From a virus (taxonomy: Duplodnaviria; Heunggongvirae; Uroviricota; Caudoviricetes), in IMG/VR virus record IMGVR_UViG_3300028275_000480, positions 64,001 to 96,452 of that record: DNA of 32,452 bases; one strand, 5' to 3'. Positions 886 through 12,286 of the stretch are shown piece by piece. A program made the position numbers and the translations under genes. The notes under the pieces are model-generated. The model had not been told where the DNA came from and made no database searches. It saw only the letters and a list, made by a program, of their open reading frames with translations. The stretch's first letter is position 1. Each line of letters starts with the position of its first letter.

Positions 886-1184
886 AATGCGAACAAGGCG
901 ACATTGCCAAAATCATTATGAGCCTTCGTCCACAAAACATAGGCAAAACCGTTTTGGTAGAAAATTATATTGGACACTTTAAACAAGGTGAAGAATTTGA
1001 TTTTCGTGGTATTATATGTAAAGCACAGATTACAGATCATTATTGGTGGATTAGCACCGACCACGGACTCCAAAATATGCTAGGCGATACACCCAAAGCA
1101 TACATCCCGGACACTTGGCTTGAGCCTCTTCGTCCAAACAAACTTAGCCAAAAAGAAGAAGAAAAACTTGACTTAACTGCTTAA
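882..1184 (+). CDS. Hypothetical phage protein
   Basis: 100-aa ORF with ATGA overlap to the upstream gene; no recognised motif. Confidence 0.7.
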   Translation: MKCEQGDIAKIIMSLRPQNIGKTVLVENYIGHFKQGEEFDFRGIICKAQITDHYWWISTDHGLQNMLGDTPKAYIPDTWLEPLRPNKLSQKEEEKLDLTA

Positions 1185-1204
1185 CGGTAGCATAATTACC
1201 CTAT

Positions 1205-1280
1205 GCGCTAGTAGCCAAGTGGAACGGCAGGAGCCTCTAAAACTCCAGAAGCGTGAGTTCGATTCTCACCTAGCGCACCA
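1205..1280 (+). tRNA. tRNA with CUA anticodon (amber suppressor), CCA encoded
   Basis: Acceptor stem GCGCTAG/CTAGCGC, D stem GCC/GGC, anticodon arm GGAGC-CTCTAAA-ACTCC (CTA at 1237-1239; C-A mismatch at the loop-closing pair), T arm GTGAG-TTCGATT-CTCAC, discriminator A, then CCA; 76 nt. Confidence 0.92.
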
Positions 1281-2382: not shown

Positions 2383-2419
2383 AAAGGGCCTTGACTGGCC
2401 CTTTTAATGGCACTATAAT
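2383..2419 (+). promoter_or_regulatory. sigma70 promoter whose -35 box lies in the loop of a terminator-like hairpin
   Basis: TTGACT (2391-2396), 17 nt, TATAAT (2414-2419); hairpin AAAGGGCC-TTGACT-GGCCCTTT followed by T. Confidence 0.8.
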
Positions 2420-2453
2420 TAAATCGTTGTTTAAACTAATTGAAAAGACTCAG

Positions 2454-3530
2454 ATGACATATTTCCTAAAACAAGGCAATTCATATACCGTTAGCAAAAA
2501 AGAATCTCTTGATCTTCATGAGCACCTACCTGCTGGCAATTATGTTATTAAGAAAAACGAAATGACTGGTCAATTGTATCTTGAAGCAATTGATAAATTT
2601 GCAATTGGTAGCAAAGTCTACGGAGACACTATTAAACGTGCAGATCGTATTCTTAATACATTTCAAAGTCGTCCTTCTACTACCGGTGTAATGCTTACCG
2701 GAGAAAAAGGTTCTGGCAAGACCTTGCTGGCTAAGATGCTGTCTGTAAAAGGCTATGAGCAAGACATTCCTACTATTGTAATTAATGCTCCTTGGTGTGG
2801 AGATTTGTTTAATGCGTTTATTCAAAGTATTGAACAACCGTTGATTGTAATTTTTGACGAGTTTGAAAAAGTATACGACGAACAAGAGCAAGAAGCTATG
2901 CTTACACTCCTTGACGGTGTGTATCCAACTAAGAAGTTGTTCGTGCTAACCTGTAACGACAAATGGCGTGTGAATAGTCATATGCGTAATCGTCCAGGCC
3001 GTATCTTCTATTCACTAGAGTACAAAGGTCTTGATGCAGATTTTATTCGTGAATATTGCCATGATAACCTTAAGGCTAAAGAGCATATCGAAAAGATTGT
3101 AGGTATTGCAGGAACTTTTGACGAGTTCAATTTTGACATGCTTAAAGCACTTGTTGAGGAAATGAATCGTTATAACGAAACTCCTCAAGAAGCAATGAGT
3201 ATGCTTAATACCAAACCCGAATATGGTGACAGCTCTAGCTATACAATCAAGCTGGTCGTTAATGGCGAAGAAGTCAAAGACACTAGCTACGAGGAAAAAG
3301 AGTGGCACGGTAACCCGCTTAACAAGAGTGTTAGCGTTAGCTACAAGGTGGTTGAGCAAGAAGGTACTGATGAGGAAGTTTGGGATTGGGAAAGTGTTCG
3401 TTTTAGCCCTGCTGAACTTAAGAAAATCGATGCCAACGGCACTAAGTATGTCTTTACAAAAGACGATGGTGTGAGCTTGATCCTTACTAAGGTTAAGACC
3501 AAAGGTTACTCTTACTGGGATGCCTTTTAA
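2454..3530 (+). CDS. AAA+ ATPase
   Basis: Walker A GEKGSGKT, Walker B VIFDEFEK, R-P-G-R arginine-finger region. Start moved to ATG 2454 because the track start TTG 2391 is the -35 box. Confidence 0.88.
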   Translation: MTYFLKQGNSYTVSKKESLDLHEHLPAGNYVIKKNEMTGQLYLEAIDKFAIGSKVYGDTIKRADRILNTFQSRPSTTGVMLTGEKGSGKTLLAKMLSVKGYEQDIPTIVINAPWCGDLFNAFIQSIEQPLIVIFDEFEKVYDEQEQEAMLTLLDGVYPTKKLFVLTCNDKWRVNSHMRNRPGRIFYSLEYKGLDADFIREYCHDNLKAKEHIEKIVGIAGTFDEFNFDMLKALVEEMNRYNETPQEAMSMLNTKPEYGDSSSYTIKLVVNGEEVKDTSYEEKEWHGNPLNKSVSVSYKVVEQEGTDEEVWDWESVRFSPAELKKIDANGTKYVFTKDDGVSLILTKVKTKGYSYWDAF

Positions 3531-3538
3531 TAAATAAC

Positions 3539-3597
3539 AAGTCCTGGACACGCGGACTTAAAAACGAGGTGGGAGACAGGTGGAAGCCCTGCACTTT
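3539..3597 (+). other. Candidate structured 5' leader RNA (two hairpins) abutting the SD of the amber-containing gene
   Basis: AAGTCC/GGACTT stem; AGGTG/CACTT enclosing CAGG/CCTG with a purine bulge; GC-rich island in AT-rich spacer. Confidence 0.45.
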
Positions 3598-3611
3598 TAA
3601 AGGAAAATAAA

Positions 3612-4190
3612 ATGACAAAATAGATTGAATATGCTTGTAAGGATGTAGTGTTCCATTTTAATAAAAAACACTTAGAAGACCAAACCGTTCCCATGTGGGT
3701 CTTAAAATTTCATGGTGAAACATTGTATGTTAATCACGTAGACTGCTCAGTTCCTTGGAGTACTAAGGAAACACCTGATAATAGTCATACTAAAGGTAGC
3801 ATCAAAGTCAAGGACGTATTGTTACGTGTCAATGACAACAACGAAGCTACAATCTCCACACTAACTATCTATGACAAATATCGACTTCGTAATCAGAAGT
3901 TAGGTATCACTCGAATTATGTTCAGTCCGGGTACGGCTTTTCATAAAGCTCTCCAAAAAAATGAGTTTAAACATAGTCCGTTTAAAACTATACAAGGTCG
4001 ATGTAGTAGTTCGTTTGTCATCTGTGATCTATTAAACAAAGCAGAAGTCACAATGGCTGGATTAAAGTTTATGGGGCAGTTTAGGATTGTCAAACCAAAC
4101 GAGAGTTATTTCCAAGAGTATGATGAAATTAAAGGAGATAACATTCCTGTAGACTATAGTCATCCTAGTACACCTTTTGAGTATTCATAA
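3612..4190 (+). CDS. Hypothetical protein with in-frame TAG at codon 4 (MTK*IEYACKDVVFHFNKKHLED...); alternative start GTG 3648
   Basis: AAGGA at 3600-3604, 7-nt spacer, then ATG ACA AAA TAG ATT GAA TAT GCT TGT AAG GAT GTA GTG, in frame with track ORF 3648..4190. Confidence 0.65.
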
Positions 4191-4227: not shown

Positions 4228-4935
4228 ATGATATTACATGCATTTGGTGATAGTTTTGTTTCGGGGTACCAGGACGATTTTATCCATATATTAGGATACG
4301 ATCCTGGTCACGGAATGGAATTTGAAGAACGAGAAGAATATCTAAAATACAATGTAAGTTTTGCAGCATTAATTGCCAAACATCTTGGATTTAAATTTAA
4401 AAATTATGCAGAAAGAGGGAGTGGAAATTTTCCTCAGCTTGATAAATTAACAACAAGATTGCGAGCCGGAAAAATAAAATCTGGAAACATTGTATTATTT
4501 GGAATTACAACGCCAATTCGAGATAGACTTTTTTTTGCCGAAGATGTTAAAATTCATAATGAAGAATTAAGTGGACCAATTTTAATCGATAGAGAACTAA
4601 TAACATCTCAAAGATTAGACAAAGTAATTGATTCTGATTATTTTTATATTCTTTGTATATTAGAACAACTTGAAAGAATTTTTGGAATAAAAATAATTAA
4701 ATTTAATCTATTTGGAACACCTCCTCCCGTTCCTTATAATTTTATAAATTATATCAACGAAGGAACATTAATTGATATTTTAAATGATACATGGGGGCAA
4801 AAAATAAAAAATCAGTATCATACCAATATTGATGTTCCGGCGGGTTACGAAAATTTGTATACTTTGAAAAAACATCCGTCGATTGAAGGGCATAAAAAAA
4901 TAGCATCTTGGTTTATTAATAATGTTAAACTATAA
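4228..4935 (+). CDS. SGNH/GDSL-like hydrolase-fold hypothetical protein
   Basis: N-terminal AFGDSF block and C-terminal HPSIEGH block. Confidence 0.65.
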   Translation: MILHAFGDSFVSGYQDDFIHILGYDPGHGMEFEEREEYLKYNVSFAALIAKHLGFKFKNYAERGSGNFPQLDKLTTRLRAGKIKSGNIVLFGITTPIRDRLFFAEDVKIHNEELSGPILIDRELITSQRLDKVIDSDYFYILCILEQLERIFGIKIIKFNLFGTPPPVPYNFINYINEGTLIDILNDTWGQKIKNQYHTNIDVPAGYENLYTLKKHPSIEGHKKIASWFINNVKL

Positions 4936-10688: not shown

Positions 10689-11009
10689 ATGAATTTACCT
10701 ACTATGCCAAAATTTGATCTTAATCAAGTTAAAGAATTTTTTGTTAATAAGTTTAGCCATATTTCAGCAGAAACATTTGGTTGGATGGCTGTTATTGTTT
10801 TACATGCTTCAACCGTTCCGAGTTTACTTGCAGTAATGAGTGGACTAACGGATCGACTACCTGGAGTAGATTTAGTATTGTTAGTTTGGACTGGTCTTAC
10901 TTTACTTTTTGTTAAGGCGGCTGTTCAAAAAGACATGCTCAATTTAATTACTATCGGTTTTGGATTTATTCTACAAGCCGTAATGATGGCGTTAATCTTC
11001 TTTAAGTAA
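10689..11009 (+). CDS. Small multi-pass membrane protein
   Basis: About three hydrophobic segments in 106 aa. Confidence 0.7.
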   Translation: MNLPTMPKFDLNQVKEFFVNKFSHISAETFGWMAVIVLHASTVPSLLAVMSGLTDRLPGVDLVLLVWTGLTLLFVKAAVQKDMLNLITIGFGFILQAVMMALIFFK

Positions 11010-11018
11010 ATTGGCAAA

Positions 11019-11055
11019 CATCACCGTTGACTTTGGTTGGCGGTGGTGCTATACT
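11019..11055 (+). promoter_or_regulatory. sigma70 promoter with inverted repeat enclosing the -35 box
   Basis: TTGACT (11027-11032), 17 nt, TATACT (11050-11055); CATCACCG...CGGTGGTG. Confidence 0.72.
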
Positions 11056-11089
11056 AATAATGTCGTAATTCACACACAGAAAGGCAGTT

Positions 11090-11575
11090 ATGAAAAAGGC
11101 TCTTATTATTGCTCCGTTGGTAGCAGCCCTTGTTGGTTGCGCTGGTATGAAAGATATTGAAGAACGCAAGACTTATGCTCAACCTAGTTGGTATCAAGAT
11201 TGCGCACAAGCTGGAACAGAAGGTTGGTTCTGGTGGTCAAAAGATTATGCATACGCCTGTGGCGCAGGTGAATCAATTCACGCACAAGCCGCAGAAGAAC
11301 AAATGTATGCAATTGCTATGAACAACTTTGCCAAACGTATTAACAGCGAAGTAAACAGCAATACCGATATCATTTTTGATAACGATAAAAAGACTACATA
11401 CACTAAAATTTCTTACGTTGTTAAGAACACAACTATCCGTGAACACCTTCAACGTGAAGTTGGTCATTTTACTATGAGTGGTCGTCATTACACTTTTGTT
11501 CGTTTGAAAATGCCTAAGGCAGTTTTTGATCAGTTGATTGCCGAAGCCAAAGAACAGAAAGTTGCGGGACGATAA
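11090..11575 (+). CDS. Lipoprotein (LPP20-like)
   Basis: Signal peptide ending in lipobox LVGC. Confidence 0.72.
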   Translation: MKKALIIAPLVAALVGCAGMKDIEERKTYAQPSWYQDCAQAGTEGWFWWSKDYAYACGAGESIHAQAAEEQMYAIAMNNFAKRINSEVNSNTDIIFDNDKKTTYTKISYVVKNTTIREHLQREVGHFTMSGRHYTFVRLKMPKAVFDQLIAEAKEQKVAGR

Positions 11576-11928
11576 TGCATCCCTACACCGTGAAGAACTA
11601 TCTGTGGGCTGTAATAATTTTGATGTTTATCATTATTGCACTCACAGGTTGTTCGTCGACACCCCAGGTACAGGCCAAGAAGCCGCAATATTGTTATACC
11701 GAACAAACTATTCAAACAAAGAATGGTGAAAAGGTTAACAGCACAACTACCGTCGAATGTACTGACGATCAAATTAAACGACTAACCGCCAAACGTTTGG
11801 GCCTAGCACCTAACTGCGGTGAGTTTACATATTGGATGCAGATTGGAGGCAAGAATGTTCAACGGACTGGTATCAGTTGTCAAAAACTGGACGGTAGTTG
11901 GGAGATTGTTAATACTTCTGGTACTTAG
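11575..11928 (+). CDS. Cys-containing lipoprotein; ends in TAG
   Basis: Lipobox LTGC; TAATG overlap with the upstream gene. Confidence 0.72.
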   Translation: MHPYTVKNYLWAVIILMFIIIALTGCSSTPQVQAKKPQYCYTEQTIQTKNGEKVNSTTTVECTDDQIKRLTAKRLGLAPNCGEFTYWMQIGGKNVQRTGISCQKLDGSWEIVNTSGT

Positions 11929-12286
11929 TACCAATGCCAATGGCGTTGAAATTAACAATCCAAAATTCTTTGATTATCGAGGCGGTTCGTGGGCCAACCA
12001 ACTAATTGAAATGTCGTTTGGTTGGTTTAAAACTCTTGACAAAGAACAATCGGCAGTCTATAATCAAAGTATTACTCATGCCGTTATGTATGCCGAAAAC
12101 GGTCAGGCTGTTACTTGGTATCAAAATGATGCCAGTGGTGTTTCTGTTCCCGTAATGACTTGGCCGGTATCAGACGGGTATTGTAGACGTATGCATATCC
12201 AAGTAATTGCATACAACGTAGAGAAAACAATGGCTGCAACTGCCTGTTTCTCAAATAGTAGCAATTATTGGAGATGGTTTAACTAA
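11855..12286 (+). CDS. Exported protein resembling the 17-kDa surface antigen (RT0821/Lpp0805-like) C-terminal domain
   Basis: GGAGG SD before ATG 11855; signal-like N-terminus; NGQAVTW...G.C.R...TAC..W pattern; 74-nt overlap with the upstream gene. Confidence 0.6.
   Translation: MFNGLVSVVKNWTVVGRLLILLVLSTNANGVEINNPKFFDYRGGSWANQLIEMSFGWFKTLDKEQSAVYNQSITHAVMYAENGQAVTWYQNDASGVSVPVMTWPVSDGYCRRMHIQVIAYNVEKTMAATACFSNSSNYWRWFN

Follow-up and report, generated by a model that had tools for sequence, protein, structure and literature searches.

The recoded phages of the gut, such as the crAss-like, Lak, Agate and Jade phages, carry suppressor transfer RNAs (tRNAs) together with 'code-change modules' (bioRxiv 10.1101/2021.08.26.457843; PMC9523058). 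These phages, which use genetic code 15, contain many in-frame stop codons in tens of genes, mostly late and lysis genes, and these stops alternate with Gln or Trp codons; gene calling with the standard code gives them a low coding density, and some members have accessory code-change genes for release factor 2 (RF2) or aminoacyl-tRNA synthetases. Suppressor tRNAs are also found in phages with the standard code, such as the Stenotrophomonas phage Summit, for which 'possible target genes ... not identified' was the outcome (PMC9022506). In this paper, we describe a phage gene that is interrupted near its start by an in-frame amber codon (TAG), and the amber-suppressor tRNA, tRNA(CUA), that is encoded upstream of it. 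Both lie in a stretch of 32,452 nucleotides from the IMG/VR virus record IMGVR_UViG_3300028275_000480 (Caudoviricetes), hereafter called the window. What the locus shares with the code-15 phages is a stop codon that a phage tRNA would read, a probable delay of translation until that tRNA acts, and the rarity of TAG as a stop. Of the features that define code 15, the matching tRNA is found here, but many recoded genes and the exchange of stop and sense codons are not: unlike in the code-15 phages, one codon of one gene is concerned, which lies within the first 10 codons, is never swapped for a sense codon, and occurs in otherwise standard-code genomes from river, lake and soil phages of Proteobacteria. 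Like Summit, these phages keep the standard code; here, one tRNA(CUA) family is matched with a concrete and conserved candidate target.

Regulation by an early stop codon is well known from prfB, the gene for RF2, in which an early in-frame UGA serves autoregulation, is escaped by +1 frameshifting and senses the gene's own product. The present locus resembles prfB in that, with a stop early in the open reading frame (ORF), the output would depend on how often ribosomes terminate there and how often they decode in another way, so that the gene senses termination capacity, and differs from it in that the escape would be provided by a dedicated suppressor tRNA. Amber-suppressor logic has also been engineered, as in the AND gates made from supD and an amber-containing T7 RNA polymerase gene. 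In these synthetic circuits, as would be the case here, the output needs both the mRNA and the suppressor tRNA, and the early amber codon removes the leak; the arrangement described here is natural and conserved in phages. A suppressor-tRNA feedforward 'leak dampener' is another engineered example (PMC7969014). In viral programmed readthrough, such as that of Q-beta A1 and MuLV gag-pol (review PMC13517186), a stop codon is likewise read as sense; there, however, host near-cognate tRNAs act with low efficiency to produce a C-terminal extension and both products are functional, whereas here the stop lies at codon 3-10, the upstream product has only 2-9 residues, and the tRNA is a cognate one encoded by the phage. 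Systems of the selenocysteine (Sec) and pyrrolysine (Pyl) type share with this locus a dedicated stop-codon tRNA for specific genes (one tRNA(CUA) and one gated gene in each near-complete genome), but the ordinary residues or start codons found at the site in relatives without the TAG argue against a special residue of this type. A two-piece transfer-messenger RNA (tmRNA), which is also part of the present locus, has been described for the phage Melnitz, in a paper that reports no suppressor (PMC9004378). Our literature search brought up no account of one conserved amber gate at an N-terminus that is coupled to a tRNA of its own.

The amber codon and the sequence behind it

An earlier reading of the window, made from the sequence alone, had noticed a Shine-Dalgarno (SD) sequence followed by ATG 3612-ACA-AAA-TAG 3621 in frame with an ORF ending at 4190, and rereading of the window confirmed this arrangement. 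The TAG, hereafter the gate, is followed by ATT GAA TAT GCT TGT AAG GAT GTA and then by a GTG codon, and the frame stays open up to the TAA stop; the whole gene (3612-4190) would encode a two-domain protein of ~192 residues. A DNA search of the phage collection gave no match. A protein search with the gated protein returned 1,467 relatives. For the first DNA set, the protein was used to retrieve 80 IMG/VR loci; more distant queries in two additional scans, together with six contigs from metagenome-assembled genomes (MAGs), brought the number of distinct nucleotide versions to 147. The gate is TAG in all 80 IMG/VR loci (81 of 81 when every locus of the first set is counted) and in every one of the 147 versions, with TAA or TGA in none. 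In all versions the leader consists of an SD sequence, an ATG and 1-8 codons, and is always in frame with the gene, but its sequence and length vary (MK, MS, MA, MQ, MTK, MSQQ, MTDLNPIAI); 66 of 69 distinct versions have an SD-like motif no more than 16 nt before the leader ATG. The TAG is also the same in river contigs from both metagenome and metatranscriptome libraries. One contig from a metatranscriptome library (run X16) has an in-frame 3-nt deletion at 3615-3618, which gives the leader MK* instead of MTK*; it is a co-occurring strain variant in which the ATG and the TAG are still in frame. An assembly error or a CAG>TAG mutation, both of which the sequence-only reading had allowed for, is excluded by the 147 independent versions and by the agreement of contigs from DNA and RNA libraries. 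The TAG is not a product of chance, an assembly error, a fresh mutation or the mark of a pseudogene.

At the nucleotide level, the only position conserved next to the gate is the base that follows it. All 68 close versions have an A there, whether the codon is one for Ile, Asn or Lys, and 98 of 100 distant versions have a purine. In E. coli, an A after TAG is a context that favours amber suppression. The predicted RNA fold of positions 3528-3660 around the TAG is no more stable than those of shuffled sequences (z -1.03). At the protein level, the stretch behind the gate is conserved as IEYAC[KR]D[VIL]V, the sequence-only reading having asked whether the residues IEYACKDV upstream of VFHFNKK are conserved, and its third codon positions vary (ATT/ATC/ATA, TAT/TAC, GCT/GCA/GCG, AAG/AAA/AGA/CGC, GAT/GAC). 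In 57 of 57 versions the gate is TAG, whereas a true Gln column 20 codons further on varies among CAG (21), CAA (14) and GAG (19), and the gate never alternates with CAA or CAG among the relatives. As the peptide is conserved despite third-position changes while the true Gln column is free to vary, the stretch must be translated, and selection acts on the TAG as well. Distant relatives that lack the TAG begin with Met at the gate position or at most two residues away (MIELACKE, MVEIACKD, MTVELACRD), and carry M, T, R, N or V at or beside that position; the leader and the TAG are therefore best seen as an add-on in front of the mature N-terminus, and the identity of the residue inserted at the UAG is unlikely to matter.

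The gate has left its traces in protein databases. Many database relatives are 190-192 aa long and read 'MTKQIEYACKDV...' with a Q at the TAG position, whereas others, of 179-181 aa, begin at FHFNKK. Public collections hold hundreds of versions with this spurious Gln (P0004-P0035 and others; L084), because gene callers chose TAG=Q on short contigs; on long contigs the same gene is called short, at 165-181 aa. Gln at the gate of database homologs was accordingly rejected as a candidate finding: the contig of P0018, for instance, matches its database protein only if TAG is translated as Q, and its DNA reads ATG AAA TAG ATT GAA. The gate is also present in a cultured virus, the Rhizobium phage RHph_I1_18 (MN988519.1, about 11,000-11,250; L082:2977-3233), where an unannotated ORF of ~85 aa, homologous to the N-terminal domain of the gated protein, reads ATG AGT GAG TTC ATG TAG AAC GAA..., i.e. 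MSEFM*NESCREVIFHFNK.... This ORF, at which the GenBank record shows no feature, lies directly upstream of the tRNA annotated there as tRNA-Pyl(cta).

The tRNA(CUA) family and code use in gate-carrying phages

The amber-suppressor tRNA that the sequence-only reading had placed 2.3 kb upstream of the gene was confirmed at 1205-1280 by both ARAGORN and Rfam. In the first 80 loci and the window, 67 tRNA(CUA) genes lie within 5 kb of the gated gene and on the same strand, usually 30-3,000 nt upstream of it, and their 48 distinct sequences form one family. Its members have a class I body of 73-77 nt with an encoded CCA end, share G1-C72, C2-G71, G3-C70, A73 and the anticodon loop C/U-U-CUA-A-A, and show compensatory changes in 12 of the 15 predicted pairs. 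Five contigs were without a tRNA(CUA) in their 10-kb locus; a covariance-model search, in which family members score 75-91 bits and other tRNAs at most 63, found a member 5-8 kb away in four of them, and the fifth contig is an 11.5-kb fragment. When the search was started from the tRNA side, a TAG-gated gene was found on the same strand in 15 of 22 IMG/VR loci that match a family-specific pattern, and five of the seven loci without one have less than 3 kb of downstream sequence. A looser tRNA pattern was unspecific in IMG/VR (13 of 80 matches were tRNA(CUA)), and none of the 12 tRNA(CUA) genes of other families had a gated gene nearby. Furthermore, a tRNA(CUA) has been retained immediately in front of the gene in five lineages without the TAG (L087, L118, L119/L120, L337 and L382/L412); the pairing of tRNA and gene is therefore older or deeper than the TAG codon.

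The record holding the window has 44,489 bp, is estimated by CheckV to be 12% complete, and is a fragment of a jumbo phage. The plus strand of the window is densely coded under the standard code, and its 37 ORFs end with TAA (28), TGA (8) or TAG (1). The statement that the gate is the sole internal TAG in a likely gene, and that the code is not globally reassigned, held up when extended to the whole record, in which we found neither a second start built as SD-ATG-few codons-TAG nor any further in-frame TAG that convinces. Three relatives that carry the gate are near-complete: G001 (331,570 bp, 93% complete), G006 (363,943 bp, 100%) and G007 (352,012 bp, 100%). In each of them, 86-90% of the genome lies in standard-code ORFs of at least 100 aa, TAG is the stop of 8-17 ORFs out of about 300, and the genome encodes a single suppressor tRNA (CUA) and a single two-piece tmRNA. 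We scanned these genomes for a leader-gate pattern, defined as an SD sequence, an ATG, at most 10 codons, a TAG and at least 80 open codons, and the gated gene is the only real case in all three. It is the sole match in G001 and G007; four extra matches in G006 were rejected as they lie antisense inside minus-strand ORFs of 136-476 codons, and control patterns with TAA or TGA gave 0-5 chance matches per genome. A coding-score test in G001 found no gene that continues across a TAG, and a homology screen over about 700 kb of flanking sequence left only the gated family with an in-frame TAG. The hundreds of first blastp matches of ORFs translated with TAG=X in that screen were discarded as antisense or off-frame translations, conserved 5' untranslated regions or promoters, and tRNA or tmRNA genes. 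These three are thus standard-code jumbo phages with one private stop-codon gate, and are not heading to code 15.

As a separate observation, the sole TAG-terminated ORF of the window (11575-11928) overlaps the next ORF (11819-12286) by 110 nt in another frame; this might reflect programmed frameshifting between the two, or readthrough of the TAG by the suppressor tRNA.

Probable decoding of the gate by the tRNA, and alternatives

We consider it quite likely, from these comparisons, that the gene is translated from ATG 3612 through the UAG under the control of the tRNA, and this is the explanation that we favour. Ribosomes would start at ATG 3612 and would have to pass the UAG at codon 4, where the phage tRNA(CUA) would compete with the host release factor 1 (RF1). 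Termination at the UAG would free only a tripeptide, and the amount of protein would follow the ratio of charged suppressor tRNA to RF1, so that the gate would act as a one-codon lock with a phage-borne key. Comparative analysis shows, at the level of sequence, a fixed UAG, a translated stretch behind it, no other conserved start, and a gene that travels with one tRNA(CUA) family; from these we infer that the tRNA decodes the UAG. The proposal of the sequence-only reading that translation from the strong start depends on the phage tRNA has hence gained comparative support from the invariant TAG, the protein-level selection, the absence of an alternative start and the two-way link to the tRNA.

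Several points weigh against this explanation. The sole-TAG status of the gate has been established for relatives and not for the genome of the window itself, whose record is largely incomplete. In 34 of 100 distant versions no tRNA(CUA) is present in the 4-kb flanks, probably owing to the limited length of these flanks. A comparison of the tRNA(CUA) with 87 co-resident phage tRNAs gave no clear isotype. No terminator-like site was found on the plus strand between the promoter-like site in front of the tRNA and the gated gene; the two may therefore share one transcript, which would weaken a pure timing role. The gated protein belongs to no known family and has no convincing fold match, so that the idea of feedback considered below is drawn from its context. 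Finally, in the locus L334 (IMGVR_UViG_3300035698_015117, about 3990-4010) the sequence ATG ACT TAG is followed directly by ATG AAC, which would permit reinitiation without the tRNA, and no tRNA(CUA) occurs in this 8.5-kb locus, which may be an evolutionary intermediate.

The last case leads to the alternative that ATG-ACA-AAA-TAG is a true mini-ORF, at the end of which ribosomes terminate and immediately reinitiate on the next codon (AUU, AUC or AUA), so that translation is tuned or coupled and the tRNA is not needed. Minigenes of two or three codons, such as the lambda bar minigenes, do act on translation, and the codon after the TAG is ATT, ATC or ATA, all near-cognate starts, in 65 of 69 versions. 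However, RHph_I1_18 and other versions have AAC, AAG, AAT or GTA at this place, which are implausible starts, and reinitiation explains neither the two-way link with the tRNA(CUA) nor the exclusive use of TAG over TAA and TGA; we regard it as unlikely. It is very unlikely, in our judgement, that the TAG is the ordinary stop of a leader peptide and that the protein starts at GTG 3648, a start that the sequence-only reading had flagged for the TAAGGA 4 nt upstream of it. This GTG, with AAGGA nearby, would give the 180-aa product of table-11 gene callers, and forms of 179-181 aa are called on many long contigs. The codon is nevertheless GTG in only 35 of 57 versions and GTC (16), GTT (5) or GTA (1) in the other 22, and it is not the conserved start because 19 of 56 versions have no ATG, GTG or TTG at all between the TAG and the PMWV motif. 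The eight residues upstream of it are under protein-level selection and form most of beta-strand 1, and the TAG-less relatives have their initial Met at the gate position or no more than two residues from it.

Two further alternatives assign a wider or a more special meaning to the codon. The gate may be the first TAG=Gln codon in an early stage of genome-wide reassignment to code 15, as the sequence-only reading had suggested. In favour of this, the phages have a suppressor tRNA, TAG seldom serves as a stop either in the window or in the complete relatives, and the path proposed for recoding begins in this way (bioRxiv 10.1101/2021.08.26.457843). Against this, the site is fixed from river jumbo phages to a rhizobiophage and is never CAA or CAG, the TAG-less relatives carry M, T, R or N there and not Gln, and there is no spread to other genes in the three near-complete genomes of 332-364 kb or in the flanks screened; the gate is old, fixed and confined to one gene, and early recoding is not supported and appears highly improbable. 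The remaining alternative, which we find the least credible, is that the UAG inserts a special non-standard residue in the manner of Pyl or Sec. A dedicated tRNA(CUA) without isotype assignment and a single fixed codon in a single gene would suit this idea, but M, T, R, N or V is tolerated at the site or beside it in relatives without the TAG, some of which start there, the site precedes strand 1 at the extreme N-terminus of the protein, and, as noted, the predicted RNA fold around the codon is no more stable than those of shuffled sequences.

The gated protein and its cassette

The positions of the features discussed are collected in the table below.

Table. Features of the gated gene and its surroundings in the window.
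Feature	Position	Strand	Basis or remark
Promoter-like site TTGACT, 17 nt, CATAAT	1168..1196	+	directly 5' of the tRNA; 10/12 consensus, pattern match only
Amber-suppressor tRNA, anticodon CUA, encoded CCA end	1205..1280	+	ARAGORN; Rfam tRNA, 56.5 bits
AAA-type ATPase gene, directly upstream of the gated gene	2391..3530	+	phrog_2376, E 1.7e-95; Pfam AAA, E 6.6e-9
SD sequence AAGGA	3600..3604	+	read in the sequence; 7 nt, then ATG
Leader ATG and two sense codons (M-T-K)	3612..3620	+	read in the sequence
Gate: in-frame UAG (TAG), codon 4	3621..3623	+	TAG in 147/147 distinct versions
N-terminal conserved domain (residues 5-96)	3624..3899	+	AlphaFold2 (AF2) predicted local distance difference test (pLDDT) 93.3, predicted template modelling score (pTM) 0.82; beta-strand 1 directly after the gate
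GTG taken as start by table-11 ORF finders	3648..3650	+	in the gate frame; start not conserved
C-terminal ferredoxin-like (ACT/RRM-like) domain (residues 97-177)	3900..4142	+	weak VIA-align match
TAA stop of the gated gene	4188..4190	+	read in the sequence
Two-piece (permuted) tmRNA, tag ANDTRFALAA	4902..5296	+	Rfam beta_tmRNA, 120.9 bits, E 3e-37; tmRNA_permuted, 115.9 bits; ARAGORN

The full-length gated protein is modelled by AlphaFold with a pLDDT of 87.6, below that of the N-terminal domain modelled alone, and in the models beta-strand 1 comprises residues 5-16, starting one residue past the gate. In the alignment of relatives N17, P27, W29 and T51 are invariant, and F14, H15, K18, K32, G35, Y39, H42, E53, P55, T60, K61 and G62 are nearly so; many relatives have acidic C-terminal tails. 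Searches of Pfam and PHROGs with the window protein gave no match, Foldseek found nothing in the PDB at E<=0.001, the matches in BFVD were uncharacterised phage proteins only, and a protein-atlas feature search with the homolog P0126 gave no usable match. The best VIA-align matches are weak for both domains: the regulatory subunit of acetohydroxyacid synthase (AHAS) for the C-terminal domain (Z 5.7, root-mean-square deviation 3.3 over 75 residues), and OB folds (Z<=3.9) together with several ADP-ribosyltransferases (Z about 3) for the N-terminal one. In a TAG-less relative (L085:5342-6606), the gene directly follows NADAR, NAMPT and NMNAT-NUDIX genes, which belong to NAD salvage and ADP-ribose processing; these neighbours are noteworthy beside the weak likeness of the N-terminal domain to ADP-ribosyltransferases.

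The conserved N-terminal domain also stands alone, in proteins of about 85-110 aa. The jumbo rhizobiophages Atu_ph07 and Phosso have proteins of 170-200 aa in which it is the C-terminal half; their genes adjoin others with the annotations peptidyl-tRNA hydrolase, RnlA RNA ligase and phosphatase. In one relative (P0172), the conserved domain is fused behind a PTH2 peptidyl-tRNA hydrolase domain (PF01981, 32 bits; cut-off, 23); the window protein had no Pfam match, and no PTH2 was found in G000, G001, G002, G006 and G007.

The ATPase gene upstream of the gate is found elsewhere as well; in L084, the gate comes after the same ATPase C-terminus (...YSYWDAF*). About 19 related loci have a two-piece tmRNA no more than 5 kb from the gate, and in G007 the tmRNA, the tRNA and the gated gene fall within 650 nt. 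In E. coli, suppressor tRNAs raise the load on tmRNA, and such a load would make the pairing of tmRNA and tRNA(CUA) sensible. In the window, the 5' end of the tmRNA overlaps the last ~34 nt of the ORF 4228-4935. The tmRNA of betaproteobacterial type, a pqqA gene in the window and the riverine source suggest a betaproteobacterial host, perhaps a methylotroph. Contigs with the cassette (L113-L118) were found in MAGs labelled Bifidobacterium, Flavobacteriaceae, Nanopelagicales, Phycisphaerales, Sphingobacteriia and Methanobacterium (a 170-kb contig), and are most likely phage contigs mis-binned into these MAGs. A second gene of ribosome-rescue type besides the tmRNA was seen in G006 and G007, which encode small ArfB-like ORFs of 159-189 aa with an RF-1 domain (G006:C1:231273-231590 and G007:C1:312348-312635; L414, L415), a long way from the gate; G000, G001 and G002 yielded no such ORF.

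The five TAG-less lineages that keep the tRNA, the tmRNA in the cassette and the PTH2 fusion of P0172 speak for a device that senses suppression capacity rather more than for a simple timer. Feedback sensing fits at least as well as the timing device or AND gate that the sequence-only reading had proposed, because the tRNA may share the transcription unit of the gene and because the TAG-less relatives keep the tRNA. From this context we tentatively consider that the gated protein might act in the same pathway as the tRNA, i.e. in termination, tRNA handling or ribosome rescue, with the UAG as a feedback sensor of suppression capacity, although we hold this to be somewhat doubtful. More speculative still is the thought that the protein could be a dedicated partner of the suppressor tRNA, acting on RF1, on the tRNA or on readthrough ribosomes, that the leader UAG could close a feedback loop on the strength of suppression, and that together with the tmRNA they could form a portable 'termination-control cassette' of jumbo phages.

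For annotation, the consequence is that table-11 callers shorten or miss the gene, and that callers which switch codes on short contigs write a spurious Gln into the databases. The gate looks like a natural one-codon translational lock and key, to judge from its conservation, and would be the natural counterpart of the amber-suppressor gates of synthetic biology; it is directly testable, as a cultured Rhizobium phage carries it. Why phages with the standard code carry suppressor tRNAs has been puzzling; a concrete, conserved candidate target, a lone UAG at the start of a single gene, can now be named for one widespread tRNA(CUA) family. Should the protein turn out to act on the tRNA or on termination, its gene would represent, as one cassette with the tmRNA and the tRNA, a new form of viral control over the end of translation.

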